Shown here: one piece after another, positions 10,650 through 50,482 of the stretch | Numbering within the stretch: position 1 is the first letter of the stretch | How the letters are laid out: every line of letters begins with the position of its first letter | From: an uncultured Pseudomonadota bacterium | GTDB lineage: Bacteria; Pseudomonadota; Alphaproteobacteria; Acetobacterales; Acetobacteraceae | DNA: 64,000 nt | NCBI GenBank assembly: GCA_963830565.1 | Contig: CAWHMO010000016.1 | Coordinates: 26,763-90,762 of the forward strand | Reading direction: 5' to 3' | Program-made: the position numbers and the translations under genes | The notes under the pieces: generated by a model | Databases searched by the model: none | The model's input: the letters and a program-made list of their open reading frames with translations, nothing else | What the model was told of the DNA's origin: nothing

Positions 10650-11365
10650 CGGCGCTGATCGAGGCCGCCGGCCTGACCCGCCGCTTCGGCGGCATCGTCG
10701 CGGTGAACGCGCTCGACCTGGCCGTGGAGGAGGGCGAGCTGGTCGGGCTGATCGGCCCCAACGGCTCGGGCAAGACCACCACCATCAATCTGCTGACCGG
10801 CCATCTGCCGCCGAGCGCCGGTCAGGTCCGCCTGCGCGGGCGGCGTGCGGACGGGCTGCCGGCCGATCGGTTTGCCGCGCGAGGCGTGGGGCGCACCTTC
10901 CAGATCACGCAGCTCTTCGGCCGGATGAGCGTGCTCGAGAACATGCTCGTGCCAGGGCTGGCGCGGTCCGGCTCCACCCGCGCCGGGGCGATGCGCGATG
11001 CGTGGCGGTATCTGACGTTCCTCAATCTCGCCGCCCTCGCGGCCCAGCCGGCGCGGAGTCTCTCGGGCGGCCAGCAGAAGCTGCTGGAGCTTGGCCGGGC
11101 GCTGATGCTGGAGCCGGCGATCCTGTTCCTGGACGAGCCGTTCGCCGGGGTGAACCCGTTCCTGCGTGATGAGATCATCGGCTTGGTGCGGTCGCTGCAC
11201 GAAGCGGGCCGGACCTTCGTCGTGGTGGATCACGACCTGGAGGCGATCCAGCGCCTGGTGCGCCGGCTGGTGGTGATGTCGCGGGGCGAGAAGATCGCCG
11301 ACGGCCCGGTTGCCGAGGTGCGCGACAATCCCGACGTGGTGCGCGCCTATACGGGGGCGGCGTGA
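10646..11365 (+). CDS. livG: branched-chain amino acid ABC transporter ATP-binding protein (LivG family)
   Basis: GTG 10646 (GTGA overlap). Carries GPNGSGKTT, LSGGQQKLLELGRAL and a LivG-type C-terminus (VRDNPDVVRAYTG). Confidence 0.9.
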   Translation: MTALIEAAGLTRRFGGIVAVNALDLAVEEGELVGLIGPNGSGKTTTINLLTGHLPPSAGQVRLRGRRADGLPADRFAARGVGRTFQITQLFGRMSVLENMLVPGLARSGSTRAGAMRDAWRYLTFLNLAALAAQPARSLSGGQQKLLELGRALMLEPAILFLDEPFAGVNPFLRDEIIGLVRSLHEAGRTFVVVDHDLEAIQRLVRRLVVMSRGEKIADGPVAEVRDNPDVVRAYTGAA

Positions 11366-12099
11366 TCCCGGCCCTCTCCGCGCGCGGGCTGGTCGCGGGC
11401 TACCTGCCCGGCATCCACATCCTGCACGGCGTCTCGGTCGATGTCATTCCGGGCCAGGTGCGCTGCGTGCTCGGCCCCAACGGCACCGGAAAATCGACCT
11501 TGCTGAAGGTGCTGTTCGGCTTTCTGCCGCCGGAGCAGGGCGAGGTACGCACGGGGGATCGTCCTCTGGCCGGCGTGGCGCCGCACCAGATGGGCGCGCG
11601 CGGCATCGTCTATCTGCCGCAACGCCCGAGCGTATTCCCGTATCTCAGCGTGGACGTGAACCTGCGGCTCGGCACCTGGATCTTCCGCCGCGACCGCGCG
11701 CGAGCGCGGGCGGCGATCGAGGCCGCGTACGGCCGCTTCCCGATCCTGGCGGAGAAGCGCGGCCAGAACGCCGGCACCCTGTCGGGCGGCCAGCAGCGGC
11801 AGCTGGAGATCGCGCGGGCGCTGCTGAACGACCCGGCGGTGTTCCTGATCGACGAGCCGACCGCCAGCATCGAGCCGCGTACCGGCGCGCGCATCTATAC
11901 GCTGATCCGGGATTTGGCGCGCGCCGGCAAGGCGGTTTTGCTGGTGGATCAGAACATCAAGGGCGCGCTGGACATCGCCGATCATGTGTACGTGCTGCGC
12001 ACGGGGACGATGTTCGCGGAGGGACCGCGCGCGGAGTTCACCGACAGCGTGGAAACGCTGGTCAAGACGTGGCTCTACACGGGGGAGCGGGTTTCCTGA
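11362..12099 (+). CDS. livF: branched-chain amino acid ABC transporter ATP-binding protein (LivF family)
   Basis: Carries GPNGTGKST, LSGGQQRQLEIARAL and FLIDEPT. It overlaps livG by 4 nt. Confidence 0.9.
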   Translation: MIPALSARGLVAGYLPGIHILHGVSVDVIPGQVRCVLGPNGTGKSTLLKVLFGFLPPEQGEVRTGDRPLAGVAPHQMGARGIVYLPQRPSVFPYLSVDVNLRLGTWIFRRDRARARAAIEAAYGRFPILAEKRGQNAGTLSGGQQRQLEIARALLNDPAVFLIDEPTASIEPRTGARIYTLIRDLARAGKAVLLVDQNIKGALDIADHVYVLRTGTMFAEGPRAEFTDSVETLVKTWLYTGERVS

Positions 12100-12196
12100 G
12101 CGTGTCCCCGATTTCTGCGAACATCGCACCAGGAGCTTTGATGCAGAAATTAGGTTCTTTGCGCCATTTAGGGTCAATTCTAGCAGCAGGGAAAGC

Positions 12197-13278
12197 ATGG
12201 TCGAACTGGCTGTAGTAGTCGCTGACATCACGGAGAGACCTTGTGATCTTCTCCTTTTGAAGCACGCGGACGGATTCCACGGAGTCGATGCAATCGTCTC
12301 GGAGCGTCTCGGGTTCAGTGCGGGAGCACCCGAGGGCGAGGTGGCCTTCTTGAGCGGGCGGAATATTAAGGCACGGAAAGTTCTATACATCGGAGTCGGC
12401 CCTCTAGGCCAATTTCGCTACCCGCAAATTCGAACGTTCGGACGTAGGGCACTGGAGCTTGCCGCTCGGGGTTCGGGGCGCACCCAAGTCCTTTGCACAC
12501 CCCTTCACGGCCCAGGGTATGGCTTGGACGAACGGGAAGCGTTCCTTTCGCTTGTTGGTGGATTTGGGACGGAATTGAGAGTAGCAACATTCCCAAAGAC
12601 TTGGAGCGCATCGAAATTGTGGAGAGGGACTTAAGAAAAGCGAAACGACTAGGTAAGATATTATCTGAATTCGTTGCTTCATCCTCGCACACCGAAAACA
12701 AGCGAAATCCACTTTATGGCAAGCAAACCTTTAACCTCGCTGCGGTATCACACCAAGGTCTCTCGTCATTCGGAGTTCAAAGCGAACGAAAAACTAAGCT
12801 GTTCGTCGCCATGCCTTTCGCACCTGAACATAGCGATGTGTGGGAGATTGCCATCCAAGAATCCTGCCAGGCCGCGGGAATTATTTGCGAGCGTGTGGAT
12901 GAGCAGGCTTATACGGGCGACATACTTATCCAAATCACGTCTCGCCTGCGAGACGGGAGCGGTGTGTTGGCGCTTCTTAACGATGCCAACCCTAATGTCT
13001 TCCTTGAGATCGGCTTTGCGTGGGGAGCAGGGAAGCCAACCGTCCTAATCGCCAAAAAGGATGCTTCGCTTCCGTTCGATGTGCGAGGCCAAAAGTGCAT
13101 TCTGTACACTTCCATCGCGAATCTCCGTTCTCTCCTAACAGCGGAGCTCATTTCGCTTAAAGCGCAAGGGGTATTCGAATTATACAGGTCCGCGGTCTTC
13201 CCTCTAGCCGGCAGCTACCTAGAGTTGGTGAATGGACTTGCTCTCCGTTACCAGATTGCTGCGGAGGAACATCAATGA
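12197..13278 (+). pseudogene. Macro domain fused to a nucleoside-2-deoxyribosyltransferase/TIR-like domain; frame switches once (possible sequencing indel)
   Basis: ATG 12197 lies within ORF 11984..12634. Macro landmarks are VVADITERPCDLLLLKHADGFHGVDAIV, VLYIGVGP and LCTPLHGPGYGLDEREAF. The sequence continues in ORF 12493..13278 (DGIESSNIPKDLERIEIVERD...). That part carries KLFVAMPF...LALLNDANPNVFLEIGFAWGAGKPTVLI...SLPFDV. The frame switch is at TTTGGGAC, 12563-12570. The gene is visibly A/T-richer than its flanks. Confidence 0.6.
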
Positions 13279-14313
13279 CGCAGAAAGCTGAGCAGAAGGC
13301 TATCGAGCGGGCCGGCCACGATCCAGTTCGCCGCAGCTTCGTTCTCGGCGGCGGCTTGGCCGCCAGCGTGGCCCTTGTCGGCGCCGCAGCCGCGCAGACC
13401 GTCCAAACCTCGCCCGAGCCCCATATGCTCAACGGTCAGCCAATGCCCGAGCCGCCGGCCGACAAGACCGCTGGTCCGGTGCGTCCAGGGCGGGGTTCGG
13501 CGCTGACCGGAAAGATCGCGGTAGTCACGGGTGCGGCGCGCGGCATCGGCCGGGCGATCGCCGTGGAATTGGCGGCGAACGGCGCCGACGTCGCGGTGCT
13601 CGACATCGCCGGCCCGGTCAGCCCGGCCTCGGACGCCGAGCCCGCCACCCCTGCCGAGCTGGCCGCGACCGTGCGCCAGATCCAGGCCTATGGCCGTCGG
13701 AGCCAAGCCATCCGCGCCGACATCCGCGACATCAAGGCGCTGCGCGCCGCCGCCGATCAAGTAGAGCAGGCATACAGCAAGATCGACATCGTTGTTGCCG
13801 ACGCGGCCATCCAGCGCTGGAAGCCTCTCCTCGACATGGAGGACAGCGACTGGTCGGACGTGATCGACAACAACCTGAACGGCACTGCCAACACCATCCG
13901 CGCCTTCGCGCCGAAGATGGTGGCCCGGCGCGAAGGACGCATCATCGTGCTCTCCTCCATGCAGGGCAAACACGGCACAAGGACGCGTCGACCTACTCGG
14001 CGTCGAAATGGGGCATACTGGGGCTGATGAAGTCGGCCGCGCTGGAACTGGGCCAATACAACGTCACGGTGAACGCGCTCATCCCCGGCCTCGTGGACAC
14101 GCCGCTCACGCGCTACGAGAAGCGCCTGAAGGAAAGCATGGAAGAGACCGGCCAGAAGCCTCCCGAGCGGCCGACGCGCAACAGGCATGGGACACACGCG
14201 CGCCAACCGTGCCCCTGAAGGTCGGCTGGCCGCAACCCGACGACATCTCCCCAGCCGCCGTGTTCCTGGCCTCCGACGCCGCGGCTATGGTGACGGGGGC
14301 GGAGAACAAGTGA
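13275..14313 (+). pseudogene. Tat-signal SDR-family oxidoreductase, at least two frameshifts
   Basis: Twin-arginine leader (PVRRSFVLGGGLAASVALVGAAAAQ), Rossmann motif VVTGAARGIGRA, and S...YSASK in a second frame. The frames run 13275->(~13978) 14027-frame ->(~14165-14182) 14008-frame, ending FLASDAAAMVTGAENK*. A third shift may extend it to TAG 14340-14342. Confidence 0.7.
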
Positions 14314-14477
14314 CCGAGGGTGACAGCGCGAAGGATGTTTAGGGCTTTATGACGTTCTGATCGTTGGCCCCGGCATCAAGTGCGTGCGAACCATGCCTGC
14401 CGGCTGGCGCCGGCACCATCCCTGACGCCGCGAGACGAGGGACTGTGCCTTTGGCGGAGTACGGCCTAACGTTCTGC

Positions 14478-14790
14478 CCCTGGATGATAGATCTCTCGGT
14501 CAATCCCAAGAGGGTCGACATGGACACTGAAGGTTTTCTGGTCCGGCCGCTCCCAAGCGGTGCGGCTGCCCAAGAAGTTCCGATTCGCGACGGGGGAGGT
14601 TCGTATCCGGCGACACGGCCATGGAGTGATCTGGAGCCGATCGCCACTGATTGGGCTTGGCTGGACGCGCTGATCGGCTTGCTCGACAAGGATTTCGTCG
14701 AGGCCACTATCAAGCAACCAGAGGGGCAGGAGTGCGCGCTGCTGAATTTTTTCGAGTGAAATACCTTCTCGACGCCAATGCCGTGATTGG
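14478..14790 (+). repeat. direct repeat copy 1 (vapB-like antitoxin plus vapC 5' stub)
   Basis: It aligns by eye, roughly three-quarters identical, with 15413-15715. Shared strings include GTGCGGCTGCC, TTCCGATTCGCGACGG, TGGCTGGACGCGCTGAT and GATTTT. Confidence 0.7.
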
Positions 14791-14932
14791 GCTGTTGGCC
14801 GGCACTACAAGGCTTCTGTCGCGGGTTCGCCAGCAGACCCGCATGAAGCATCACCCGACGCGATGCGCTTCTGGCCATCATTTCCGGCGATTGGATAGAT
14901 GCATGTCTGACGAGAGGGGGAAAACCCCATGA
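14515..14932 (+). pseudogene. degenerate vapB(AbrB/VagC-type antitoxin)-vapC(PIN) remnant, copy 1
   Basis: One frame reads [36 protein letters not shown] and the other reads [25 protein letters not shown]...LLNFFE*, with the shift near 14628-14633. GTG 14756 (GTGA overlap) opens VKYLLDANAVIGLLAG, a PIN N-terminus that loses homology after about 28 aa. Confidence 0.6.
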
Positions 14933-15258
14933 TTCGATTGACGGTTGCTATAAGCATTTTATGCACAGCGTTGAGTGGTCAGACACTGGCGCAGCAAGGT
15001 GCTCAGCCTCAAACTCTTGAAGAGTTAAACAGGAAATTGGAGGCAGATCTAAAGAAAGTCCCCCCGGGTTCGGTGCAGACCATGTTGGTGCCGTTGAATC
15101 AATCGTTGACAGATTTGTTGAATAGCGGGTGGACTATTTCGAGCGGAGGTCCTGCTACCGGGCTTGTACTTCGACAAGGAAGCAAGTGGGTAGCTTGTCA
15201 GATTAACGACGGTCGGTTTGGGTCGCCGCCAGCTTCACATTGCCTGTCCCTAAATTGA
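14929..15258 (+). CDS. small secreted hypothetical protein (109 aa)
   Basis: ATG ORF with a Sec-type signal (MIRLTVAISILCTALSGQTLAQQ). It is A/T-rich relative to its surroundings, and I recognise no family. Confidence 0.5.
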   Translation: MIRLTVAISILCTALSGQTLAQQGAQPQTLEELNRKLEADLKKVPPGSVQTMLVPLNQSLTDLLNSGWTISSGGPATGLVLRQGSKWVACQINDGRFGSPPASHCLSLN

Positions 15259-15412
15259 TAGGCTCGGGGCGTGGCGATACGGTCCCTCCGGGACGCTCGC
15301 AGGGCAGCGGGTCGCTTTCCATATAGCGACTTCTCCTACGCGGCGACGGGCCAGTTCGGGTTGAGAGCGGGAGTCTCGGCAGCCTTGTATGCAAAGGAGG
15401 GATTGGAACTAC

Positions 15413-15715
15413 GTCCCTGGATGTCCCATCCCGTAGGGTAGATACGGACACTGCCAACGTCGTCTGGTCCAGTCGCTCCCAGGCAGTGCGGCTGCCGAAG
15501 GAATTCCGATTCGCGACGGAAGAGATCCACATCCGGCGACCTGACATCCGGTGATCCTGGAGCGATCGCTACCGATTGGGTTTGGCTGGACGCGCTGATT
15601 GGCCTCCTCGACGAGGACTTTGTTGAGGCCACGACCAAGAAACCGAAGGAGCAGGAAAGCCCGGTGCTGGATTTTTTAGTGAAGCATCTGCTTCGATCCG
15701 ATACCCTCATGTACG
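15413..15715 (+). repeat. direct repeat copy 2 (vapB-like antitoxin plus vapC 5' stub)
   Basis: See copy 1. The two copies bracket the 109-aa secreted ORF. Confidence 0.7.
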
Positions 15716-15741
15716 TTGAGGATTGCGAGTCGGCCAAGTAG
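15440..15741 (+). pseudogene. degenerate vapB-vapC remnant, copy 2
   Basis: One frame reads [29 protein letters not shown] and another reads [38 protein letters not shown]. The shift is near 15560-15566, a different position from copy 1. GTG 15679 opens VKHLL..., which stops after 20 codons (TAG 15739-15741). Confidence 0.55.
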
Positions 15742-15774
15742 CCACCGACTTGGCGCGCAGGCTACGATCCGCCC

Positions 15775-17049
15775 ATGACCGAGTTCCGTTTCCTGCACGC
15801 GGCCGACCTGCACCTCGACAGCCCGCTGCGAGGCTTGGCCGCCGACCGCGAGGCTCCGGCGGAGCGCATCCGCGCCGCGACCCGCGCCGCGTTCACCAAC
15901 CTCGTCGACCTCGCCCTCGCCGAGCGGGTCGCGTTCGTGGTGATGGCGGGCGATCTGATCGACGGAGAGTGGCAGGACTGGCGCACCGGGCATTTCCTGC
16001 TGACCGAGATCGCGCGGCTCAGGGATGCAGGCATCAAGTTCTACGCGATCCACGGCAACCACGACGCCGCCAATCCGGTGCTCGGCCGGCTTCGCCTGCC
16101 CGATGGCGCGGGCACCATCCTCGACGCCGCGAAACCGCGGACCGTGCGTTTGCCGGAGCACGGGGTCTCGATCCACGGCCAGAGCTTTCCCACACGCGAC
16201 GTGCGCACCAATCTCGCCCTCGACTATCCCAAGCCGGAGCCCGGCCACTTCAACATCGGCCTGCTGCACACCGCCGCGACCGGCCGCGACGGGCACGAGA
16301 ACTATGCGCCCTGCACCGTCGACCAGCTCGCGGCGCATGGCTACGAGTACTGGGCGCTCGGCCACGTCCACGCCCGCGAGGAGCTGGCGCGCGATCCGTG
16401 CTGGATCGTCTTTCCCGGCAACACCCAGGGGCGCCATATCCGCGAGACCGGGCCGAAGGGCGCGACGCTCGTGACCGTGCGCGACCGGCGGGTGGCGGCG
16501 GTGGCGCACCGCCCCCTCGATGACGTGCGCTGGGCCATGCTGGACATCGAGCTGGCCCCCGAGCTGGACGAGAGCGCGGTGCTGGACGCCGTGCGCCAGC
16601 GCCTCGGAGCGGCGCTGGACGAGGCCGGGGATCGGCTGCTGGCGGTGCGGCTGATTTTGCGCGGCGCCTGCGGCGCGCACGCGGCGCTGGTCCGCGATCT
16701 CGGCGCGACGCGCGACCGGCTGCACGGCGAGGCGACTGCGCTCGCCGGCGATGCGATCTGGCTTGAGGACGTCCGGCTCCTGACCCGCCCCGCGCTCGAT
16801 CGCGCCGCGACGCGGGCGCGCTCCGATGCCATGGGAAAGCTGCTTGGCCAGATCGACGACATGCGACCGGACGCGCTGGCGCCGCGCCTGCAGGAATACT
16901 GCGCGGCGATGCTCGACCGCGCACGAGGCCTGCGCGAAACGCTGGGGGAGGATCATCCGGCAGTGGCCGGCGCGCGCGGCGAGATCACCCCGGAGATGCT
17001 GGAGCGCGCGCGCCAGTTGCTGCTCGCGCACATGGCGGCGGAAGACTGA
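15775..17049 (+). CDS. metallophosphoesterase, SbcD/Mre11-like DNA repair exonuclease (YhaO-like)
   Basis: Calcineurin-like phosphoesterase motifs are present: FLHAADLHLD, VVMAGDL, IHGNHD, GHVH. Confidence 0.85.
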   Translation: MTEFRFLHAADLHLDSPLRGLAADREAPAERIRAATRAAFTNLVDLALAERVAFVVMAGDLIDGEWQDWRTGHFLLTEIARLRDAGIKFYAIHGNHDAANPVLGRLRLPDGAGTILDAAKPRTVRLPEHGVSIHGQSFPTRDVRTNLALDYPKPEPGHFNIGLLHTAATGRDGHENYAPCTVDQLAAHGYEYWALGHVHAREELARDPCWIVFPGNTQGRHIRETGPKGATLVTVRDRRVAAVAHRPLDDVRWAMLDIELAPELDESAVLDAVRQRLGAALDEAGDRLLAVRLILRGACGAHAALVRDLGATRDRLHGEATALAGDAIWLEDVRLLTRPALDRAATRARSDAMGKLLGQIDDMRPDALAPRLQEYCAAMLDRARGLRETLGEDHPAVAGARGEITPEMLERARQLLLAHMAAED

Positions 17050-17052
17050 GCG

Positions 17053-20000
17053 ATGCGGCTGACCTCGCTCGCGCTGACGAACTACGGTGTCTTCCAGTCC
17101 GAGCGTATCGATCTCGATCCGGCACCGGGCTGCATCAACCTGCTGATCGCGCCGAACGGCGCCGGCAAGTCCATCCTGCGAAGCGCGTTCTGCGACCTGC
17201 TGTTCGGCGTCGGCGCCCAGACCCCGATGGGCTTCCGCTATGGCTATCGCGACATGCGCCTGCTGGCGCACGCCGAGACGCCAAACGGCGCGTTCGTGTT
17301 CGGCCGAAGGAAGGGCCAAGGCAACACGCTGATCGATGCGGATGGGCGGCGCATGGACCCGGCCGTGCTCGCTTCGTTGCTGGGCAGCGCCGACCGCGCA
17401 TTGCTGGAGCGGCTGTTCGCGCTGGATACCGAGAGGCTGCGCCTGGGCGGCCAGGCACTCCTTGCCTCGGACGGCGCGTTGGCCGAGGCGCTGGTGTCCG
17501 CTTCGGGCGGCGTACGCCAGGCGCGCGATATTCGGCTGACGCTGGAGACGGCCCGCGACAGCTTGGCACCCAAGCGGGCATCCCAGAGCCGCCCATTCTA
17601 CCAGGCGCTCGACCGCTTCCTCGGCGCCCGCAAGCGCATCGCCGCGACCATGCTGAAACCCGAGGTGCGGGAGAAGCAGGAGATCGAACTCAAGGCTCTG
17701 CAAAACGAACGTACCCACCAGGATCTGTTGCACAAGCGCGCCACGCGTCTCCTGTCGCGGCTCGACCGCGTGCGCCGGATCCGCGGCGTGCTGGCGAGCC
17801 TGGACCAGCACTCGGCATGGCTCGCCGCCCATCCTGACGCGCCGGCGCTGCCTACGGATGCGGGCGCGTGCCTGGACGGCGCCGAACGCAAGCTGCGTGA
17901 GGCCGAGCAGGCAGCCCAGCACGCAACCGCCACCCACGACGCCATCGCCGCCAAGATCACGTCGGTCGCGGTTGACGGTGCCCTGATCGATGCCGCGGCC
18001 GAGCTGGAGACGTTGGTGCGACGCGCCGGTGCGATGGAAAAGGCAGCGGCGGACCGCCCCGCCCGCCAAGCCGAGCACGACGCCGCCAGCGGCCGCATCG
18101 CCGGGATGCTGCGCCAGCTTGGGGCGCAGCCGACGGACCTCATCCCGTCGCTGCCCGCCATCGCCCGCGCGCGCCAGCTTCTATCGATTCACGACACGCT
18201 GCGCGGCGACCTTGACCGGCTGCCGCGCGACGCCGCCGCCAAGCAGACCGAACGCGACAAGGCAGCCGCCGAGCTTGCCGCGCTGGGGGCGCCGGCCGAG
18301 ACGCGCGGCCTGAAGCGTCTGGTGCGCGAGATCGGCTCCGATCCCGCAACCAGCGCTGCTCAGGCGGTGCGCACGGTGGCGCAGCGGCGAGCTGCGCTGG
18401 AGCAGGCCCTCCGGCGCGTGCCGGGCTGGATCGGCGGAGCGGAGGCGCTGGCCGATCTGAGCCCTCTTCCGCCGAGCGAGTATGAGCGTCTGGGCGCGCG
18501 GCGTGACGCGGCCGAGCAGACACGGGCACGGCTTGCGAGCGATCTCGCGTCCGCTCGCGCCGATGCGGAGGCCGCGCGCGCACGGCTGACGGCGCTTTCC
18601 GGCGACGTGCCGATCCCAGACGCCGCCCAGGTTGCGGCGGCCCGGAGGAGGCGTGACGGCGGCTGGGCGCTGATCTGCCGGCGGCTGTTCGAGGGTACAC
18701 CCGATCCCGCAGCGGAGCGCGCCTGGGCGGGCGACCTGCCGCTGCCCCTGGCCTACGAGCGCGCCGTGACCGCGGCCGACGATCTCGCCGATCGGCGCGG
18801 CAGCGAGGCGGAACGGGTCGAGCGCATGGCCGAGTCGCGGCGGCAGATCGCCGCCACGGAGGCGATCATCGAGGATTTATGTATCCGTCTGGCCGAAGCT
18901 GTCGACGCGTGCGCGCGGATAGAAGCAGCCTGGACCGCGGTGTGCTCCCCGCTCAACCTGCCCAGCGACGCGGGGCTGGGGGCGGTGCGCGATCTGATGG
19001 CGGGTCGAGAGCGCGTGCTCGACCTGCTGCGCGGTGTGGCCGAGGCCGAGGAGGTGAACGACACGCTCCTCGCACGCCATGCCGACTGGGCCGCGCATTT
19101 GGCGGCAGGCTTGAACGTGCCCGCGACCAACGAAGCGGCCGCGCTGCCCGGCCTGCTCGCGCGCGCCGAGGCCGCGATCGACACCGAGGAACGCGCAGAA
19201 AAGGCCCGTGCCAAGCTAGAGACGCGTCTGGCTGCGGCACGCGAGGAGGCCGAACGGCTCGCCCAGGCGCTGACCGAGGCGACCGACCGGCACGCGAGAT
19301 GGCAGGTCGAGTGGACCGACGCGCTCGCCGCGCTGGGCCGCCCTGGCGATGAGGACCCAGACATCACGCGGGCTCTGCTGGACGTGCTGGCTGATCTCGA
19401 CAAGGAGCAGCAGAACGCGACGCAACTTGCCGACCGGCTGCGGGACATGCAGCGGGATTTGGCGGCGTTCCGCGACGATGTGGCGGCCACGGCCCGGCGG
19501 CTGGTACCGGACATCGCCAACGCGGATGCGTTCGAGGTCGTCCATGCCTTGCGCCGGCGCCTGACCGAGCAGCAGAAGGCCGCGCAGCAGCGCGACACGC
19601 TGCTGGCACAGCTTGCCGACGCCGATCGCGGGCTCGTCAGGCTGAACGGCGATCTTGGCAGGCATCGCGCGGCCCTCGGCGCCACATTGGCCGAGCTCGG
19701 CGCCGAGACGATCGGGGTCGCACGAGAGCGCGTATTCCTGGCAGCCGAGCGCGTCCGCGCCGAGGCCGCCATGCATGAGGCTGAACAGAAACTGCGCGAC
19801 GAGGGCGATGGGCTCGACATCGCGACGCTGCGCGAGGAGGTCGCTTCCATCCCGCCCGATGACGTGCCCGCCGAGATCGAGGCGGCGAAGCGGGAGCGCG
19901 ATGCCGGGGTGGCCGCGCTGCAGGACATCGCCGCCCGCATCGCCACGAGCACGGCCGAGCTGGATCGCCAGGCCCGCGAAACCGGGGCCGGCATCGCCGC

Positions 20001-20541
20001 GGCGGAGCAGGAATCGGCGGCGGCGAGCCTCGGCCGCGTGCTCGACGAGGCGACCGTGCTGCACCTAGCCGCTTCGATGCTGGATACGGCGCTCGGGGCG
20101 GTGGAGGGCGCCGGGACCTCGGAGGTGCTGGACCGCATCGGCGCGTTGTTCCGCGCGGTCACCGCCGGCGCCTATGACGGTGTCGCCGCCGAGCCAACAG
20201 AGGACGGTTCGGCACGGCTCATCGCCCTCGAGCACGGCGTTCCCGACGAGCCGAAGCAGGTGATTCAGCTTTCGGAGGGAACTCGCGACCAATTGTTTCT
20301 GGCCCTGCGCATCGCGGCGATCGAGGATTATGCGAAGGCCGCTCCGCCCCTCCCCTTCATCGGCGATGATGTATTGCAGACCTTCGACGACGAGCGGGCG
20401 CTGGCGGCGATGTGCTCGCTGATCGAGCTGAGCCGTACCACCCAGGTGATCCTGCTCAGCCACCACCGCCACCTCCTGGATCTCGCCGCGCGCCTGCCGG
20501 AGGGCTGCGTGCGGGTGGGCGCGATCGCGCGCGCGGCCTAG
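17053..20541 (+). CDS. Rad50/SbcC-like AAA ATPase with long coiled coil (YhaN-like)
   Basis: N-terminal Walker A (LIAPNGAGKS), about 900 aa rich in A/E/R/L coiled coil, then a C-terminal signature/Walker B region (QLSEGTRDQLFLALRIA...PFIGDDVLQTFDDER). It lies 3 nt after the phosphoesterase gene. Confidence 0.85.
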   Translation: MRLTSLALTNYGVFQSERIDLDPAPGCINLLIAPNGAGKSILRSAFCDLLFGVGAQTPMGFRYGYRDMRLLAHAETPNGAFVFGRRKGQGNTLIDADGRRMDPAVLASLLGSADRALLERLFALDTERLRLGGQALLASDGALAEALVSASGGVRQARDIRLTLETARDSLAPKRASQSRPFYQALDRFLGARKRIAATMLKPEVREKQEIELKALQNERTHQDLLHKRATRLLSRLDRVRRIRGVLASLDQHSAWLAAHPDAPALPTDAGACLDGAERKLREAEQAAQHATATHDAIAAKITSVAVDGALIDAAAELETLVRRAGAMEKAAADRPARQAEHDAASGRIAGMLRQLGAQPTDLIPSLPAIARARQLLSIHDTLRGDLDRLPRDAAAKQTERDKAAAELAALGAPAETRGLKRLVREIGSDPATSAAQAVRTVAQRRAALEQALRRVPGWIGGAEALADLSPLPPSEYERLGARRDAAEQTRARLASDLASARADAEAARARLTALSGDVPIPDAAQVAAARRRRDGGWALICRRLFEGTPDPAAERAWAGDLPLPLAYERAVTAADDLADRRGSEAERVERMAESRRQIAATEAIIEDLCIRLAEAVDACARIEAAWTAVCSPLNLPSDAGLGAVRDLMAGRERVLDLLRGVAEAEEVNDTLLARHADWAAHLAAGLNVPATNEAAALPGLLARAEAAIDTEERAEKARAKLETRLAAAREEAERLAQALTEATDRHARWQVEWTDALAALGRPGDEDPDITRALLDVLADLDKEQQNATQLADRLRDMQRDLAAFRDDVAATARRLVPDIANADAFEVVHALRRRLTEQQKAAQQRDTLLAQLADADRGLVRLNGDLGRHRAALGATLAELGAETIGVARERVFLAAERVRAEAAMHEAEQKLRDEGDGLDIATLREEVASIPPDDVPAEIEAAKRERDAGVAALQDIAARIATSTAELDRQARETGAGIAAAEQESAAASLGRVLDEATVLHLAASMLDTALGAVEGAGTSEVLDRIGALFRAVTAGAYDGVAAEPTEDGSARLIALEHGVPDEPKQVIQLSEGTRDQLFLALRIAAIEDYAKAAPPLPFIGDDVLQTFDDERALAAMCSLIELSRTTQVILLSHHRHLLDLAARLPEGCVRVGAIARAA

Positions 20542-28437: not shown

Positions 28438-28832
28438 GCCGCTGGTTCCCGCCGGGCGGGAACGCGTAACACCGCCTGAAGCTCCGCGAGGTCTGGTTCA
28501 CCAGCCGCGGCCGCCGCATCCTCTAGCCGGCGATAGGCCGCGAGCACCCGCGCGCCGAGCGAGGTGAGTGCCGCCCCACCGCCGCCGGCGCCTCCCTTGG
28601 CGGCATCCACCAGCGGGCTGGCGAACATGGCGTTCATCTCCTCGGCCAGGGACCAGGCGCGCTTGTAGCTCATCCCCATGCGCCGGCCGGCAGCGGCGAT
28701 CGAGCCGGTCTCGGCGATGCTCTGCAGCAGCTCGGCCTTGCCCGGACCGATGGCGACGGCCTTTCCCAGCACCACGCGCAAGTGGAGGCCGAGACGCTCA
28801 GGATGACGCACGCGCCGCATGCGGCGGAGCAA
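28434..28832 (-). CDS. winged-helix DNA-binding protein, ModE N-terminal-domain-like
   Basis: IGPGKAELLQSIAETGSIAAAGRRMGMSYKRAWSLAEEMN matches the ModE/LysR-type wHTH. There is no TOBE domain. Confidence 0.65.
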   Translation of the reverse strand: MLRRMRRVRHPERLGLHLRVVLGKAVAIGPGKAELLQSIAETGSIAAAGRRMGMSYKRAWSLAEEMNAMFASPLVDAAKGGAGGGGAALTSLGARVLAAYRRLEDAAAAAGEPDLAELQAVLRVPARREPAA

Positions 28833-28870
28833 AGCACGCGCTCCCTGGGCCCGGCTAGGGCAACGCGGCG

Positions 28871-29461
28871 CTAACCCGGTTCTGCGAGCGGCAGCGTGAC
28901 CCCGATCATGTCGCCCTCATGCACGATCGACGCCAAGCGGGCCTCGTCCCAGCCCTCCGTGCCGGCGGGGCGGACCGGCAACACCATCCAACGGTAGTCG
29001 GCGGTGGAATCCACCACGCGCACCGTCACCCCATCCGCCAGAACAGTGCCCCATTCCGCCAGCAGCCCGCGCGGGTCGCGGACGGCACGGGCGCGATACG
29101 CGGCCGACTTGTACCAGAATGGCGGATATCCAAGCACGGCGCGCGGGTAGCAACTGCACAGCGTGCAGACGACGAGGTTATGGACCGTCTCGGTATTCTC
29201 CAGCACCCCGAGCGGCGGAGCGCCCCGCATCGGAATGCCCAACATCTCGGTGGCCTTGGTGCCGTCCTCGAGCATCAGCGCGCGATACTGCGGATCGAGC
29301 CACGCCCTGGCGACCATGCGCGCGCCCTGGCCGGGCACGGCGGCATCGGTCGCGGCGCGGCTCTCGGCGATCTCGGCCTCGGTCACGAGGTTCTTCTCCG
29401 CCAGCAACGCGCGCAACGCGGCCAGCATCCGTTCGCCATCGGTTTGAAGAATGGTGCTCAT
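28871..29461 (-). CDS. nitrile hydratase alpha subunit, cobalt-type motif
   Basis: VVCTLCSCYPRAVLGYPPFWYKSAAYRARAVRDPR contains the CTLCSC metal claw. I prefer the start MSTILQ (ATG 29461), which forms an ATGA overlap with the upstream gene; the table ORF extends to 29476. Confidence 0.88.
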   Translation of the reverse strand: MSTILQTDGERMLAALRALLAEKNLVTEAEIAESRAATDAAVPGQGARMVARAWLDPQYRALMLEDGTKATEMLGIPMRGAPPLGVLENTETVHNLVVCTLCSCYPRAVLGYPPFWYKSAAYRARAVRDPRGLLAEWGTVLADGVTVRVVDSTADYRWMVLPVRPAGTEGWDEARLASIVHEGDMIGVTLPLAEPG

Positions 29462-29742
29462 GCCGGCTCCAGCCAATGTTCGAAGATCTCCACCAGCAGC
29501 TCGTCCCCTGCCCGGCCTTCTTGCCAGACCGTCGGTTGATCGAACGCGACATGGTACAGCGTCCGGGTGGCAGCTTGCCGGCCGAAGGCCAGGTCCTCGG
29601 GGTTCGGGAAGGCACCAAGCCGGCGCACCACGCGACCGCGCATCCCGCGCAGATAGTGCGGCGTGCGGATATGCACCGGCCCGCGCCTTTCCGGCCAGTC
29701 GTCCCTGACGCGCACCGCGAGGCCGGGGGCGAAGTCGGTCAT
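29458..29742 (-). CDS. nitrile hydratase beta subunit, C-terminal-half protein (94 aa)
   Basis: Internal ATG 29742 of ORF 29458..30081. FAPGLAVRVRDDWPERRGPVHIRTPHYLRGMRGRVV...LYHVAFDQPTVW matches the SH3-like C-terminal domain of NHase beta. Confidence 0.8.
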   Translation of the reverse strand: MTDFAPGLAVRVRDDWPERRGPVHIRTPHYLRGMRGRVVRRLGAFPNPEDLAFGRQAATRTLYHVAFDQPTVWQEGRAGDELLVEIFEHWLEPA

Positions 29743-30050
29743 CGTGTCCGCTCCAGCGCCGCTTCCAGCTCGGCCTCGGTGATGACGCCCTTGCGGATCA
29801 GGTTGTCCGCTATGGAGCGAACCCAGCGCCGGTAATAGCTCAATCGATGGTACTCGGCCTCCGGAATGGCCTCGATGCCGCGCCGCAACTCGTCGACCGT
29901 CATGACGCGCTTGCGCCCCAATACCTGGCGCAGCGCGTCCACGTCGCGGTCGAACTCGGTCAGGCCGTGCGGCTGGATGTCCACCGGCTCGCACATAAAT
30001 CGACCGGCACCCCCTAGATCGTGGTGGGCGCGGGGTACGTCCTTTTCCAT
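29739..30050 (-). CDS. nitrile hydratase beta subunit, N-terminal-half protein (103 aa)
   Basis: HHDLGG near the N-terminus and MTVDELRRGIEAIPEAEYHRLSYYRRWVRSIADNLIRKGVITEAEL match the NHase beta N-terminal domain. ATGA overlap with the next gene. Confidence 0.8.
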   Translation of the reverse strand: MEKDVPRAHHDLGGAGRFMCEPVDIQPHGLTEFDRDVDALRQVLGRKRVMTVDELRRGIEAIPEAEYHRLSYYRRWVRSIADNLIRKGVITEAELEAALERTR

Positions 30051-30093
30051 GCGGGGACGATAGCCCGCGGGCCGCGCGCACGCGAGTCGCGGT

Positions 30094-42849: not shown

Positions 42850-42892
42850 GACAACACCTCCCTCGCCTATTCTAGGCGCGGTGTTCCATTAG

Positions 42893-43216
42893 ATCTTCTC
42901 TGAATCTCCGATGGGTCTTTTCCCGCGCGGCTATGATGCCGGAAAGAAGGTGCTCGGCCGCAAGCGGCACGCGATGGTCGACACCGATGGCCGCCCGCTG
43001 GTGCTGCAAGTGCATCCCGCCTCCGTCCAGGACCGCGACGGTGCCGTCCCGCTGCTGAAGACGTCTCGTCGCAGCTTTCCCTTTGTCGAGCGTGCCTTTG
43101 CCGACACCGCCTATGCGGCCGAGCGCGTCGCCGACGCCACCTGCATCGCCATCGAGATCGTCCGCAAACCCGCTGATCAGGTCGGCTTTGCCGTCCATCC
43201 GCGCCGCTGGGTGGTG
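42893..43216 (+). pseudogene. IS5-family DDE transposase gene remnant, part 1 (5'-truncated, interrupted)
   Basis: PRGYDAGKKVLGRKRHAMVDTDGRPLVLQVHPASVQDRDG...FADTAYAAE...HPRRWVV matches the IS5-family catalytic region. Homology stops abruptly at 43216. Confidence 0.8.
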
Positions 43217-43236
43217 ATCGACTGTACAAATTTGCC
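43216..43236. repeat. left terminal inverted repeat of the serine-recombinase element
   Basis: GATCGACTGTACAAATTTGCC compared with the reverse complement of the right end, GATCGACTGTACAATCTTGCC: 19 of 21 positions are identical. Confidence 0.8.
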
Positions 43237-43357
43237 AAGCCGAGTTTCGAGTGGCTGGAGGCCATCGCGCGCGAGGAACTGCGTGCTCTGGGGTATGCGT
43301 GCCGCCAGGCTGGGTTGAGGCTCCATCGGCTGCCCCCGCCGCCCGGGGGGTCTGCCG

Positions 43358-43555
43358 ATGGAGGAGCGAATGGTCCAAGCCAAGGATCACCCTCGCTTGG
43401 AGCTGCGGGAGTTGTTCGAGACGACCCGATTGGGCCCGCAGTGCCTGATCAAAGCCTACGTCCACTTGATCCCGATCCGGCGCGTGAAGGCCGGATGCAC
43501 CGGGCAGGAACGAGCGGACGCGCTGTCGCGAAAGAGCGGAGGTAAGCATGCCTGA
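43358..43555 (+). CDS. hypothetical 65-aa ORF inside the element, overlapping the recombinase start
   Basis: MEERMVQAKDHPRLELRELFETTRLGPQCLIKAYVHLIPIRR.... I recognise no family. A G6 run just upstream (about 43335-43345) could hide a longer ORF (FAKPSFEWLEAIAREELRALGY...). Confidence 0.3.
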   Translation: MEERMVQAKDHPRLELRELFETTRLGPQCLIKAYVHLIPIRRVKAGCTGQERADALSRKSGGKHA

Positions 43556-45217
43556 GCGTCATGTCGCGTTCTATGCGCGCGTCTCGACCGAGAGCCAGGC
43601 GCACGACAACACCATTGCCAGTCAGGTGAGCGCTCTTCGCGAGCGGATCGCCGCCGATGGCGGGCAACTCGAGCCCGATCACGCCTACACTGATGAGGGT
43701 TACAGCGGCTCTGTCCTGATCCGCCCGGCGCTGGAGCGGCTGCGCGATGCGGTAGCGGCCGCGAGCATCCAGCAGATCTACGTTCTCGCGCCCGATCGCC
43801 TTGCCCGCCGCTATGCCCATCAGGCCTTGCTGATGGAGGAGTTCCATCGTGCGGGCGCCGAGGTGGTGTTCCTGAACCGGCCGATCGGCGGCACGGCCGA
43901 GGACGATCTCTTGTTGCAGATGCAGGGTGTGATCGCCGAGTACCGAGCGTGCCAAGATCCTGGAGCGAGGCCGGCGGGGACGCCGTCACGCGGCGCGTTC
44001 GGGGCTGCTCAGCGCGTTCACCACCGCCCCGTTTGGCTATCGCTACGTGCCCAAGGATCAGGGCGGCGGGATGGCGCGCTTCGAAGTGATTCCGGATGAG
44101 GCCCGCTTCGTGCGGCTCATCTTCGCCTGGATCGGGTTGGAGCGGCTGAGCCTGCGCGAAGTCTGCCGCCGCTTGCAGCAGGCCGGCGTTCCCAACCGAC
44201 GAGGACAGGGGCTGTGGTATGCCTCGACCTTGCACGGCATGCTGACCAACACGGCCTATATCGGGCGGGCCGTCTATGGCCATTCCCGCTACCTGCCTGC
44301 GCGCCCGCGCTCGCGGCCGATCCGGGGGCATCCCCATCCTCCCGTGCGCCCGACGGCGCGCGTCGCTGTGTCACGCGAGGAGTGGATCGAGGTGCCCGTG
44401 CCTGCGTTGGTTGACGAAGCGGTGTTCGCGGCGGCTCGGGCCCAACTCGTCGAGAATCGCCAACGCAAACGCGACGGCCTGCGCGGCCCCCGCTGGCTGT
44501 TGCAGGGACTGACCGTGTGTCGCCAGTGCGGGTATACCTATTATGGCAAGGCCCTCCCGAGGTCGCGTGCGGATCCCTCGAAATGCGGGTATCGCCAGTA
44601 TCGCTGCCTGGGCACGGACGGGTATCGGTTCGGTGGCACCGCACCGTGTAGCAACAGGACCGTCCGAGCCGAGCATCTCGAGCAGGCTGTATGGGAGCGA
44701 GTGTGCGCCCTTCTACAGAACCCCAGCAGGGTTGGAGATGAATACCGACGCCGGGTGCGCCAGGCAGGCGAGGGCGCCGTCAAGTCGGACGAACTGGTGC
44801 AGCTTGAGCGACAAAGGGCAGCCCTGCAGCGCGGAATTGGGCGGCTGATCGACAGCTATGCCGCTGGCGTGATCGATCGTTCCGAGTTCGAGCCGCGCAT
44901 CACCGGGCTCAAAGCGCGCGTCGCTCAGTTGCAGGAGCAACAGCGGGCAGCGGCTGACGTGGCGAACGCGGAGCGTGAGCTGACGCTGGTTATCGGTCAG
45001 CTCGAGGATTTCGCCAGCAAGGTCCGCCACAGCCTGGAGAGCCTCGACTGGCTCAGCATACGGGAAATCATCCGAACCCTCGTCCGGCGGATCGAGATCG
45101 ACGGCGATCAGGTCGAAGTCATCTTTCGGGTTCCCCCACCGGTCGGCTCCGGCGGCCCATCTTGGCCCGGTCCGGCCAGCGGCGAACCACCAGCCAGGCA
45201 AGATTGTACAGTCGATC
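43548..45217 (+). pseudogene. large serine recombinase (resolvase domain + recombinase domain + Zn-ribbon + coiled coil), one frameshift, no in-element stop
   Basis: GGAGG lies 6 nt upstream of ATG 43548. AFYARVSTESQ carries the catalytic Ser. The frame switches after ...GVIAEY at 43943-43946 and resumes as ERAKILERGRRG...FGYRY... in ORF 44047..45921. CRQCGYTYYGK...YRCLG is the Zn ribbon. The ORF stays open through the right end. Confidence 0.8.
45197..45217. repeat. right terminal inverted repeat of the serine-recombinase element
   Basis: GGCAAGATTGTACAGTCGATC. See the left repeat. Confidence 0.8.
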
Positions 45218-45355
45218 GTCGAGAGGACGATCGGTTGGCTCAACCGCTGTCGCCGCCTCGCCAAGGACTTCGAGACTACCATCGAGTCCGCGACAGCCTT
45301 CCTCTACGCCGCCTCAGCCATGCTCCTCATCAGGCGCATTGCTCGTTGCACATGA
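45218..45355 (+). pseudogene. IS5-family transposase gene remnant, part 2 (C-terminus)
   Basis: The same coordinate frame as part 1 reads VERTIGWLNRCRRLAKDFETTIESATAFLYAASAMLLIRRIARCT*, the canonical IS5-family C-terminal tail. TGA at 45353-45355. Confidence 0.8.
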
Positions 45356-45369
45356 GTTCAGAGTCAACT

Positions 45370-46152
45370 TTAGGTGGGGAGCATCCCAGCGCCTGCGGAA
45401 GCCTGGCCGATGATGACGTTGCCAGAAACGCTCCTGCCAAACAGGCTGGCGTTGTGCAGGCTTATGTCGATCGCCTGGGTGGTGATGCCTACTGGCGTGA
45501 TCGTCTTGTCGAGTCCGTTGGAGATGAGGTCGGATACAGTTTGCCGATCGAGGGTCACGGTGACGATCGGGCTCGAGAACAGAACCGTATTGGGCGCGGC
45601 GTCGCCCGAGAACGTCAGGGTCTTTCCGATCAAGGCTCCGCTCAGGCTCAGCGAGCCAAAGCCAGCCTCGCCGCTGACGAAACTCCTGTCCATTCCGTAG
45701 ATATGCGAATACGTCGCACTCGAATGGATGTGGCTTGCCGAGACCGACAATCCCAGCAGCGAGAGAATGCCGCGAGGGAGCAAAGGATTATCGGTGAGCA
45801 GGAATTCGGCCGACCCGACGCTCGCCTCACCGGTCGCGGAAACGGAATCAATGCCCATCCCGGCGGAGGTCGCGTTCGTGCCGAGTCCCGTGGCGTGGAT
45901 CTGCAAGGTCGGATTAAGTGAACTTCCGGGCTCGAGGCTGAGGGTCTGGTCCAGGTGGTCCACGATCTGGGCTTTGTCATAGGTGGGTGGGGCACTACCT
46001 TCGACATGGGCGATCGGACCGAAATCGAGCGCCTTACCACCGGGGGCAAGATGAACGGCAAGTCCGTCTGCAGAACTCGATGCGATTGACACCGGGGTGG
46101 TCCGAGGTATCGGCGGTATCGCGGGCGGCATTTCCGGGAGGGAGGTGGACAT
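45370..46152 (-). CDS. hypothetical protein (260 aa), Ser/Thr/Gly-rich, beta-rich appearance
   Basis: ATG ORF preceded by AAGGTGA, with moderately lower G+C. I see no signal peptide or family. Its stop lies 15 nt from the IS5 remnant. Confidence 0.5.
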   Translation of the reverse strand: MSTSLPEMPPAIPPIPRTTPVSIASSSADGLAVHLAPGGKALDFGPIAHVEGSAPPTYDKAQIVDHLDQTLSLEPGSSLNPTLQIHATGLGTNATSAGMGIDSVSATGEASVGSAEFLLTDNPLLPRGILSLLGLSVSASHIHSSATYSHIYGMDRSFVSGEAGFGSLSLSGALIGKTLTFSGDAAPNTVLFSSPIVTVTLDRQTVSDLISNGLDKTITPVGITTQAIDISLHNASLFGRSVSGNVIIGQASAGAGMLPT

Positions 46153-46249
46153 CGCTCACCTTGTTGCTGATTTGAAACTTACGCGACCTCCTCCTAACTC
46201 ACGTTACCGTGAAGGGCTACTTAAAAACCGCACCTCCCCGGAATTCGGC

Positions 46250-46277
46250 AAAGCCCCGCCATTGCTGGCGGGGCTTT
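46250..46277 (-). terminator. rho-independent terminator downstream of glnA (bidirectional hairpin)
   Basis: AAAGCCCCGCC-attgct-GGCGGGGCTTT forms a perfect 11-bp stem, with T-rich flanks on both strands, about 35 nt after the glnA stop. Confidence 0.6.
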
Positions 46278-46311
46278 CGGTTGTAGGCGGCTTCGTCGCC
46301 GTAGGCGCTGC

Positions 46312-49737: not shown

Positions 49738-50373
49738 ATGGGCGGCGGCGACAAGCCGCTGCTGGAGGTGGGCGGCCGGACCATGCTGGCACGCGTGGTC
49801 GACGTGCTGGCGGCGGAGGCCGATTCCGTGGCGATCAGCGCCAATGGCGATCCCGCTCGCTTCGCCACCTATGGCGTGAGAGTGCTGGCCGATGGCGCCT
49901 TTGTCGGACGGGGGCCGCTTGCAGGCGTGCTGGCCGGCCTGCAATGGGCTGCGGAGAGTGGCGGGACGGCGCTGCTGACCTTGCCGGGCGACACGCCTTT
50001 CGCACCGCCGAACCTCGCCGCCCGTCTCGCCCCTGCCCCTGCCTGCGCGGAAAGTGCCGGACGCGTGCATCACCTCGTCGCGCTCTGGCCGGTGCCGATA
50101 AAGGACGCGCTGGCCCGGTTCCTCACCTCACCCGGCCCGTATGCGGTGCATGGGTTTGCCCGGACGATCGGGATGCGCACGGTGGCGTTCACAGATTGGC
50201 AGCGCGACCCGTTCGCCAACATCAACACCGTCCAGGACCTGATGACGGCGCGCGACAGAGGAGTGCTCGGACCAATGACCAGGACAGTCAGGTCACGATG
50301 TGGGCCGATCCGTCGCTGGAGCGCAACACGCACACGATCCGTGTCGAGGCCGAGGCGGCGCGCTTCTGCATGA
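49738..50373 (+). pseudogene. mobA: molybdenum cofactor guanylyltransferase MobA-like, no canonical start after the tRNA and 3' end fused to foreign sequence
   Basis: In-frame homology starts at about 49685 (GLFALALAGGAARRMGGGDKPLLEVGG), upstream of the first ATG (49738). No ATG, GTG or TTG lies between the tRNA end and that ATG. After ...NINTVQDLMTAR the ORF reads through for 39 codons into a nadX remnant. Confidence 0.6.
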
Positions 50374-50482
50374 GATCGAAGACGTTCCCAGCCCGGATAA
50401 TCCCCGCACCGGCCAGTTGCCGCCGCTTTCGATGCTGGCTTGCTTGCGTGGGCTGGTCTCGACCTTGAAGGTCGGGAGCTAG
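50262..50482 (+). pseudogene. 3' fragment of an L-aspartate dehydrogenase (NadX/DUF108)-like gene, frameshifted
   Basis: VTMWADPSLERNTHTIRVEAEAARFCM in one frame continues as EIEDVPSPDNPRTGQLPPLSMLACLRGL in another, which is the Asp-DH C-terminal pattern. Nothing 5' of it remains. Confidence 0.55.

Follow-up and report, generated by a model that had tools for sequence, protein, structure and literature searches.

Between a livF-like gene and a short-chain dehydrogenase/reductase (SDR) gene of an uncultured Acetobacteraceae bacterium (contig CAWHMO010000016.1) lies an insert of about 1.2 kb that is low in guanine and cytosine (GC) and carries a single gene split over two reading frames. What kind of protein does this gene encode, and does its family have a role in bacterial immunity? 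An earlier note, made from the letters of the surrounding 64-kb stretch (hereafter the window, meaning all 64,000 nucleotides analysed), had seen in the gene a Macro domain joined to a module like nucleoside 2-deoxyribosyltransferase (NDT) or TIR, and had taken the pair for a candidate conflict module. We put at roughly 0.5 the probability that the family is a self-contained immune effector of the abortive-infection type, built like ThsA of the Thoeris system and combining in one chain a sensing Macro domain and an effector that acts as an N-glycosidase. Direct support comes from the two folds, their fusion, the conserved candidate catalytic and pocket residues, immune-type partners and signs of horizontal transfer; what the protein binds and cleaves, in which direction it is regulated and what phenotype results are our inferences. 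We therefore present the family as a good candidate, not as a demonstrated system.

Two predicted domains in one small protein

When the two frames were joined, the resulting 360-aa translation retrieved more than 350 full-length homologues of about 320–340 aa, the best of them 84% identical, and all are uninterrupted and annotated as 'hypothetical'. That the two halves form a single polypeptide, as first proposed from one broken copy, is thus borne out by hundreds of intact homologues. When the Macro-like domain alone served as query in an exhaustive profile search, 988 clusters at 50% identity were retrieved, and this domain was almost always paired with the same downstream C-terminal domain. 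The family occurs patchily across phyla, in Alphaproteobacteria, Acidobacteriota, Actinomycetes, Planctomycetota, Bacteroidota, Cyanobacteria and others.

For the N-terminal half we used an AlphaFold2 (AF2) model of the homologue P0001, which is 84% identical to the window protein, with 106 aligned homologues (predicted local distance difference test, pLDDT, 92; predicted template-modelling score, pTM, 0.91). Foldseek comparison of this model with the PDB returned the Macro domains of PARP14, YmdB, macroH2A1.1, TTHA0132, MacroD1 and PARP9 with E values of 3e-7 to 1e-5 and target-normalised template-modelling (TM) scores of 0.6–0.7 (0.69 for YmdB, 5cb3), and also the N-terminal domain of leucine aminopeptidase (LAP), which has the Macro fold. 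By this comparison the three-layer alpha/beta/alpha Macro fold is present in the predicted N-terminal domain. It is assigned to this half because Peptidase_M17_N, a member of the Macro clan, matches 35 of the 106 homologues inside the domain, because TTHA0132, its sole Macro match by sequence profile (E 0.43), aligns there, and because a Foldseek search with the C-terminal domain alone was free of Macro matches.

The Macro landmarks of the earlier note are therefore recovered by AF2, Foldseek and the TTHA0132 profile alignment, and they are non-canonical, as it had said. The position of the hydrolytic NAAN motif is taken by L-K-H-A-D, that of the GGG loop by G-F-Y-G-V-D, and the second glycine loop reads H-G-P-G-Y-G-L-D. 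Residues K22, A24, G29, D31, G66-G68, L70, F73, Y75, H104-G105 and Y108-D111 are invariant in the family and are all found in the window copy. Judging from the model, these residues are likely to sit in the loops from which the canonical Macro ligand cleft is formed.

The C-terminal domain was modelled by AF2 from the window itself (12760–13275; pLDDT 85). Its Foldseek matches are led by MilB (4jem, E 3e-6), DNPH1 and BcmB, followed by the TIR domains of SPARTA, SARM1, SpbK and TIR-STING; TM scores to NDT/DrHyd enzymes are 0.6–0.76, and the similarity to the SPARTA and SARM1 TIR domains has an E value of about 1e-3. As in the NDT/DrHyd superfamily, the domain has a Rossmannoid fold in which the helix following strand 3 opens with a Glu; it carries the motif LFVAMPF behind strand 1 and the motif NPNVFLEIGFA. 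The Glu in NVFLEIG (codon GAG at 13006–13008), which in the P0001 model sits in a helix of residues 266–277 after a strand of residues 256–260, is the putative catalytic residue. All or nearly all members of the family keep it, and in a PDB profile alignment it stands opposite the Glu of GTHVEIGWA in MilB, which we take to be the catalytic nucleophile of that enzyme.

Sequence models agree with this assignment to different degrees. PF05014 matches 104 of the 106 members (best E 4e-6), mostly under its curated cut-off of 28.8 bits: the window protein scores 13.7 bits and the multi-domain relatives P0261, P0334 and P0344 score 29.5–31.2 bits. PF10137 matches 63 of the 106 weakly (E 0.003–0.02), and the PADLOC 'Effector TIR' model PDLC00733 matched at 1e-9 to 1e-11. 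The canonical TIR_2 and TIR models (PF13676 / PF01582) gave no match on the C-terminal domain. A search of NCBIfam returned no match. Foldseek, PF05014 and PDLC00733 together uphold the proposed NDT/TIR-like module. Published accounts put DrHyd domains on a par with TIR as NADase effectors (PMC7159879, PMC8195603, PMC9503650).

Relatives of the C-terminal domain were also seen outside the complete gene. In two loci, an open reading frame (ORF) consisting of this domain only, 30–33% identical, lies 0.4–0.8 kb upstream of the full gene (L037, 336–695; L064, 4608–4961). Moreover, gp47 of Staphylococcus phage P630 (L087, 3995–4645) and SpyM3_0974 of Streptococcus prophage 315.2 (L088, 3899–4678) have related N-terminal domains, which match the PADLOC TIR effector model at 4e-15 to 5e-12. 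Both are reverse-oriented, 'moron'-like genes of temperate Firmicute phages, annotated 'hypothetical', and are probably the ones noted in PMC9503650 as the 'distinct TIR of small Firmicute phages'.

Fusion partners and a Thoeris-like working model

The domain partners of the module are the principal evidence for an immune role. Among 116 new representatives, 57 are stand-alone proteins of the Macro and C-terminal domains and 28 carry the module behind an N-terminal extension; a home-made hidden Markov model placed an N-terminal TIR in about 17–18 of the 116. A word-indexed protein search with the N-terminal domain gave short or truncated proteins only, and the fusions emerged from the exhaustive search of representatives. 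Pfam confirmed TIR_2-Macro-NDT in six representatives, SEFIR-TIR_2-Macro-NDT in P0250, EAD7-Macro-NDT in P0252 and P0260, Macro-EAD7-NDT in P0261, bDLD1-Macro-NDT in P0345 and CHAT-Macro-NDT in P0341, while in P0236 and P0333 a canonical TIR_2 follows the Macro domain in place of the usual C-terminal domain. The fused TIR of P0247 is ThsB-like (PDLC00420, 5e-30), and that of P0333 matches PDC-S66 and ThsB.

Because the module is fused to ThsB-like TIR, SEFIR, CHAT, EAD7 and bDLD1 domains, and because TIR takes the place of its C-terminal domain, these domain assignments place it in the network of immune and conflict domains. EADs and bDLDs are adaptors that recruit effectors in nucleoside triphosphate (NTP)-dependent conflict systems (PMC7159879, PMC8195603, PMC9503650). 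The fusions and the canonical TIR swap in two variants thus lend strong independent support to the label of conflict module. The earlier note had recognised no named system, and we likewise found none: a Macro-TIR or Macro-NDT fusion, or a Macro-DrHyd single-gene system, is unnamed in PADLOC and in the literature searched, which did not cover the survey of Burroughs et al. (2015, NAR).

The nearest comparison is type II Thoeris, in which the Macro domain acts as a sensor, its only characterised use in defence (PMC11204291). As in ThsA, a Macro-fold domain is joined to what is predicted to be a cell-harming effector domain, and in a sizeable subset of the family a ThsB-like TIR is fused to these two domains, which recalls the logic of generator, sensor and effector. 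On the other hand, the ThsA effector is transmembrane whereas the C-terminal domain of the family is a soluble DrHyd/TIR-like Rossmannoid fold, the Macro motifs of the family are non-canonical, its proteins have no PADLOC ThsA match, and a neighbouring thsB is missing from the window and from about 94% of the loci.

The TIR effectors of CBASS and Pycsar (Cap12, PycTIR; PF10137; PDLC00733) share with the family the matches to PF10137 and PDLC00733, the motif N-V-x-x-E-x-G and the layout of a sensor with an NADase-type effector. They differ in that the sensor of the family is a Macro domain, not SAVED, STING or a domain binding cyclic nucleoside monophosphates, and no cyclase partner is present; besides, the PF10137 scores are under the curated cut-off and the PADLOC match covers only the TIR part of PDLC00733 (about 290–355 of 388). 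By analogy, the module may work like Thoeris ThsA or the CBASS TIR effectors, but it departs from both in its partner, in the ThsA or SAVED match and in the type of effector or sensor.

The NDT/DrHyd N-glycosidases (MilB, BcmB, DNPH1/Rcl and nucleoside 2-deoxyribosyltransferase) provide the best structural matches and the aligned Glu. They are single-domain metabolic or biosynthetic enzymes, whereas the domain of the family is fused to Macro and swaps with canonical TIR, and therefore it would have a conflict role, possibly with NAD+ as substrate. The effectors coupled to EAD or bDLD in NTP-dependent conflict systems (Kaur, Burroughs, Iyer and Aravind, 2020/2021) resemble those family members that have EAD7 or bDLD1 at the N-terminus, and Macro and DRHyd are both listed among the effector or NAD-processing domains of these systems. 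Unlike them, the window gene has no EAD and no STAND or vWA-MoxR core was seen near the inspected loci; the accessible text of this literature contains no description of the Macro-DrHyd dyad. Finally, DarTG, composed of the Macro antitoxin DarG and the toxin DarT, also couples Macro to a toxic NAD+-using activity, as is predicted for the family; in contrast to DarTG, the family has no DarT/ART domain, its activities are fused and do not form a toxin-antitoxin pair, and PADLOC gave no DarTG match.

In the mechanism we favour, the Macro pocket would bind an ADP-ribose-derived small molecule arising on infection, and this binding would relieve autoinhibition or drive oligomerisation. The C-terminal domain would then use its conserved Glu to cleave the N-glycosidic bond of NAD+, as a TIR-like NADase, or that of another nucleotide, and such cleavage would deplete an essential metabolite. 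In the fused relatives, the N-terminal ThsB-like TIR may make the signal in cis; for the stand-alone forms, the trans-acting source may be host metabolism, the phage or a further TIR/NADase system. A precedent is the stand-alone TIR-SAVED effector, which defends without a cyclase by sensing host c-di-AMP (bioRxiv 10.1101/2025.06.19.660554).

A bolder version, which we offer tentatively as a possibility, is a 'one-protein Thoeris' of about 1000 clusters at 50% identity in many phyla. Its non-canonical Macro domain would sense an ADP-ribose-derived alarm molecule and switch on the DrHyd N-glycosidase; a fused ThsB-like TIR would supply the signal in cis, and the commoner stand-alone forms would be eavesdropping effectors for the signals of other NADase/TIR systems, of the host or of the phage. 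If this is true, bacterial immunity would include, in the stand-alone forms, a new class of amplifier that is shared and acts downstream; its ligand may be new, and its substrate may be a nucleotide other than NAD+. If the sensor-effector reading is right, a family now annotated throughout as 'hypothetical protein' would be a new type of immune effector, and the two themes best known from NAD+-centred immunity, the sensing of ADP-ribose derivatives and TIR-like N-glycosidase action, would be united in a single soluble protein of small size. Three natural architectures, stand-alone Macro-DrHyd, ThsB-TIR-Macro-DrHyd and Macro-TIR, form a ready experimental series, in which one could ask how immune signals are read by Macro domains, whether an effector can function in the absence of its cognate generator, and whether it is NAD+ or some other nucleotide that DrHyd domains deplete. 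Context in defence islands alone would miss this candidate, since the evidence lies in its domain fusions.

Genomic context and competing functions

The genomic context was surveyed in 80 loci from many phyla. GC of the gene was more than 0.03 under that of the flanks in 50 of them and higher in two, and insertion sites vary even among close relatives. Besides the housekeeping sites described below, the gene adjoins an IS3 transposase in one place and an MNT/HEPN-like pair in another. Its upstream neighbour is co-oriented in 52 of 72 loci. In two alphaproteobacterial metagenome-assembled genomes (L004, 8973–10000; L005, 1240–2202), the gene is interrupted at codon ~70–84 by insertion sequence (IS) elements; these are two different insertions of about 1 kb, both around the G-P-L codons, which contain CTAG in the window, and that of L004 encodes a predicted transposase of 295 aa, IS5-family-like by eye. 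Five of the 80 loci have a strong TIR gene within 10 kb, directly downstream in two of them; L070 and L024 are examples of a stand-alone family gene with a TIR gene next door.

Several results weigh against the proposed sensor-effector role. With regard to context, all-against-all clustering of the ORFs within 6 kb found no conserved neighbour in the 80 loci, where the largest neighbour cluster comprised five loci. The 150 immediate neighbours are mixed housekeeping genes with few and generic PADLOC matches (UvrD, SbcB, radical SAM), and counts of PADLOC and Pfam families, made without a background model, showed no clear defence enrichment among them. The neighbourhoods of homologues, which the earlier note had named as a check, are mostly housekeeping and partnerless, close to the uniformly housekeeping setting that it held to speak against a conflict role. 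Copies are embedded in housekeeping operons, namely livF-X-SDR in the window, after rplM-rpsI, and between E2 (pdhC) and E3 (lpd) of the pyruvate dehydrogenase (PDH) operon in Methylobacterium sp. SyP6R (L089, 10001–11020) and Lichenihabitans (L127, 10001–11002), where the stop and start codons overlap or abut the neighbours. There is no TIR gene in the window and none within 10 kb in 75 of the 80 loci. Searches of 50,697 phage records, 72,556 plasmids and 2.9 million IMG/VR contigs returned relatives of the C-terminal domain only, at 28–36% identity, and not one full-length member.

With regard to the protein, the closest structural matches of the C-terminal domain are nucleotide N-glycosidases (MilB, DNPH1), not NADases. 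PF01661 gave no match to the window protein or to the 106 members even at E<=10, because the NAAN and GGG motifs are replaced, and the PADLOC ThsA-Macro model gave none. The sequence-level relatives of the N-terminal domain are limited to TTHA0132 and, weakly, to the LAP N-domain family, which does not bind nucleotides. Binding of ADP-ribose or a derivative by the Macro domain is suggested by the fold and by where the conserved loops lie. The lost stop codon of the window copy, described in the next section, fits decay as well as harmless variation.

The competing function that survives best, though we think it unlikely, is a two-enzyme effector for NAD+ or ADP-ribose processing. Here, cleavage of NAD+ or a nucleotide would fall to the C-terminal domain, and the Macro domain would be a second catalyst, not a sensor, which processes the ADP-ribose-type product and so makes or destroys a signal or toxic metabolite, or makes the loss of NAD+ irreversible. 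The protein would still be a conflict component, working without allosteric sensing, and the 'signal-degrading unit' suggested by the earlier note is included here. The invariant polar residues K22, D31, H104, D111, Y75 and Y108 on the canonical cleft loops suit catalysis as well as binding, the surveys of the Aravind laboratory class Macro as ADP-ribose-processing and list it among the effector domains of conflict systems, and the EAD7 and bDLD1 fusions mark the entire module as a recruited effector. However, the canonical hydrolytic residues (the Asn of NAAN and the GGG loop) are replaced, the order TIR-Macro-DrHyd mirrors the logic of generator, sensor and effector, and the Macro domain of type II Thoeris is a sensor.

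We consider improbable a purely housekeeping or stress-metabolic N-glycosidase, like DNPH1 or MilB in salvaging or sanitising nucleotides or NAD, with an ADP-ribose-binding regulatory domain and no conflict role. It would account for the structural matches to MilB, DNPH1 and BcmB, the housekeeping neighbourhoods with copies inside PDH and liv operons, the frequent co-orientation with the upstream gene and the absence of full-length members from the phage, IMG/VR and plasmid collections. The fusions to ThsB-like TIR, SEFIR, CHAT, EAD7 and bDLD1, the canonical TIR swap and the match of the C-terminal domain to the PADLOC TIR effector model nevertheless argue against it, as do the patchy distribution across phyla, the GC consistently under that of the flanks, the varied insertion sites and the disruption by IS elements. 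That the gene serves a mobile element in counter-defence, by destroying or sequestering immune signals derived from ADP-ribose, is very improbable: Macro domains are common in phages as ADP-ribose-processing counter-measures (PMC9503650) and the gene is mobile and low in GC, but full-length members are missing from the same three collections, no integrase or phage genes are conserved nearby, and the fusion partners are host immune adaptor and effector domains.

The gene in the window and its surroundings

The insert carries a foreign-looking stand-alone gene, probably acquired horizontally, whose parts are listed in Table 1. GC falls from 0.69–0.70 in livF to 0.48–0.59 in the insert (0.51–0.59 over 12197–13278) and returns to 0.69 in the SDR gene, and GC at third codon positions (GC3) is 0.90 in livF, 0.57 and 0.54 for the gene's two halves (12197–13278) and 0.84–0.91 in the SDR gene. 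These measurements match the low-GC insert first noticed between livF and SDR. The ORF coordinates likewise agree with a gene starting at ATG 12197 whose halves are in different frames (one from 12197 to a stop at 12634, the other open over 12493–13278), and the overlap of its TGA with the SDR start as ATGA is confirmed at 13275–13278. Since no convincing sigma-70-like promoter or terminator was found on the plus strand in the spacer region, the gene is probably transcribed by read-through from the liv operon.

Table 1. Parts of the insert and the preceding gene, in window coordinates.
Feature	Coordinates	Strand	Basis or remark
livF-like ABC ATPase ORF	11362..12099	+	ORF call
Low-GC spacer of 97 nt, livF stop to gene ATG	12100..12196	+	GC 0.505; purine-rich stretch resembling a ribosome-binding site, AGGGAAAG, just before ATG
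N-terminal non-canonical Macro-fold domain, residues ~1-165, broken by the frameshift	12197..12690	+	AF2, Foldseek, TTHA0132 alignment, Peptidase_M17_N matches
Site of the missing base, -1 frame change	12563..12567	+	DNA and protein alignment
Variable low-confidence linker, ending in the conserved motif L-S-S-F-G (G193 invariant)	12691..12783	+	pLDDT 69-85 at residues 160-190; alignment
C-terminal NDT/DrHyd-TIR-like Rossmannoid domain, predicted N-glycosidase	12784..13182	+	AF2, Foldseek, PDB profile alignment, Pfam/PADLOC
Read-through tail of 31 unconserved codons, TGA end	13183..13278	+	Alignment; pLDDT ~52-61

Protein alignment with intact homologues puts the break between ...LVGGF and DGIES..., where the window reads GGATTT-GGGAC (12560–12570) and intact homologues read GGATTTTTGGAT, so that one base is lacking in the run of T or of G. 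The earlier note had proposed an indel of one G at 12563–12570; the loss of a single base there holds, whereas a lost T fits the relatives equally or better. It had missed a second change, in which the stop TAG of the homologues is TAC in the window (13183–13185) and the frame runs on into the tail. Compared with L081, the closest relative at the DNA level, the ratio of nonsynonymous to synonymous substitution rates (dN/dS) is 0.13 upstream of the break and 0.15 downstream, in-frame stops are absent on both sides, and every family-invariant residue is kept.

Other genes of the window are broken in a similar way. A GC3-based Viterbi frame tracker was run on the whole window to flag frame switches, and at least four further verified frameshifts split housekeeping genes (two in SDR, one in a sucD-like gene and one in glgA). 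In glgA (~58.88 kb; ~58885), joining two frames gives a single end-to-end match to PDB GlgA (query 1–470, chain 1–476), and in the sucD-like gene (~4.54 kb; ~4540) the joined frames give a single end-to-end match to SucD (2–281 on 2–282). The SDR gene (13275–14313) needs three frames for one adh_short_C2 match over positions 1–227 of 236, with breaks near 13985 (AAA to AA) and near 14160. Moreover, most of the inspected short family matches on long contigs run into unrelated sequence, as frameshifted copies would.

Because dN/dS is similar on both sides, the invariant residues are kept and at least four other breaks occur in housekeeping genes of the window, we think it likely that the frame break is an assembly artefact, in the pattern of an error-prone, uncorrected long-read assembly. 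The gene is therefore probably intact in the organism, and the break should not be taken as biology without a look at the reads. A genuine pseudogene, in which a real 1-nt deletion and the loss of the stop have inactivated an acquired and possibly costly gene, is a lesser possibility that concerns the window copy only and is compatible with any function of the family. It would explain the missing base at 12563–12567 together with the change of TAG to TAC at 13183, truly disrupted copies exist elsewhere (IS insertions at codon ~70), and the adjacent SDR gene with its two breaks could mark a decaying region. Against decay speak the downstream dN/dS of 0.15 with no in-frame stops and all invariant residues kept, the position of the break in a homopolymer, and the similar breaks in most inspected short family matches from long contigs; distant core genes (glgA and the sucD-like gene) are split as well, a pattern that has little biological plausibility and is characteristic of long-read assemblies left uncorrected. 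Programmed -1 frameshifting was considered and rejected, because, read in the zero frame, GGA TTT GGG does not fit the slippery pattern X XXY YYZ, and the reading frame is continuous at this point in hundreds of homologues.

Some other features of the window were observed. An otsB-like gene near 63.66 kb (~63660), a candidate of the frame tracker, seems to be split as well. A nitrile-hydratase-like cluster at 28790–30090 on the minus strand has an alpha subunit with a CTLCSC motif and a beta subunit in two adjacent ORFs of different frames, which may be a genuine split or a further frameshift. Between the SDR gene and a metallophosphoesterase gene, the stretch 14300–15770 has lower GC (0.50–0.62) and no GC3 signal of the coding type; it contains a small secreted-looking ORF (14929–15258) and a direct repeat of about 220 nt in two copies (14530–14752 and 15456–15677), which are ~80% identical and 925 nt apart. 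The following pair of Metallophos (424 aa) and AAA_27/SMC_N (1162 aa) genes at 15775–20541 is of the SbcCD/YhaO-YhaN type and has only weak PADLOC matches (mad3 at 1e-8; the N-terminal ATPase motif of PtuA and AriA); it is probably of a DNA-repair type and not a recognised defence system. In three stretches (42870–46314, 50257–54308 and 54645–56895), the frame tracker did not see the GC3 pattern of host coding sequence, and these may be further foreign or non-coding islands.

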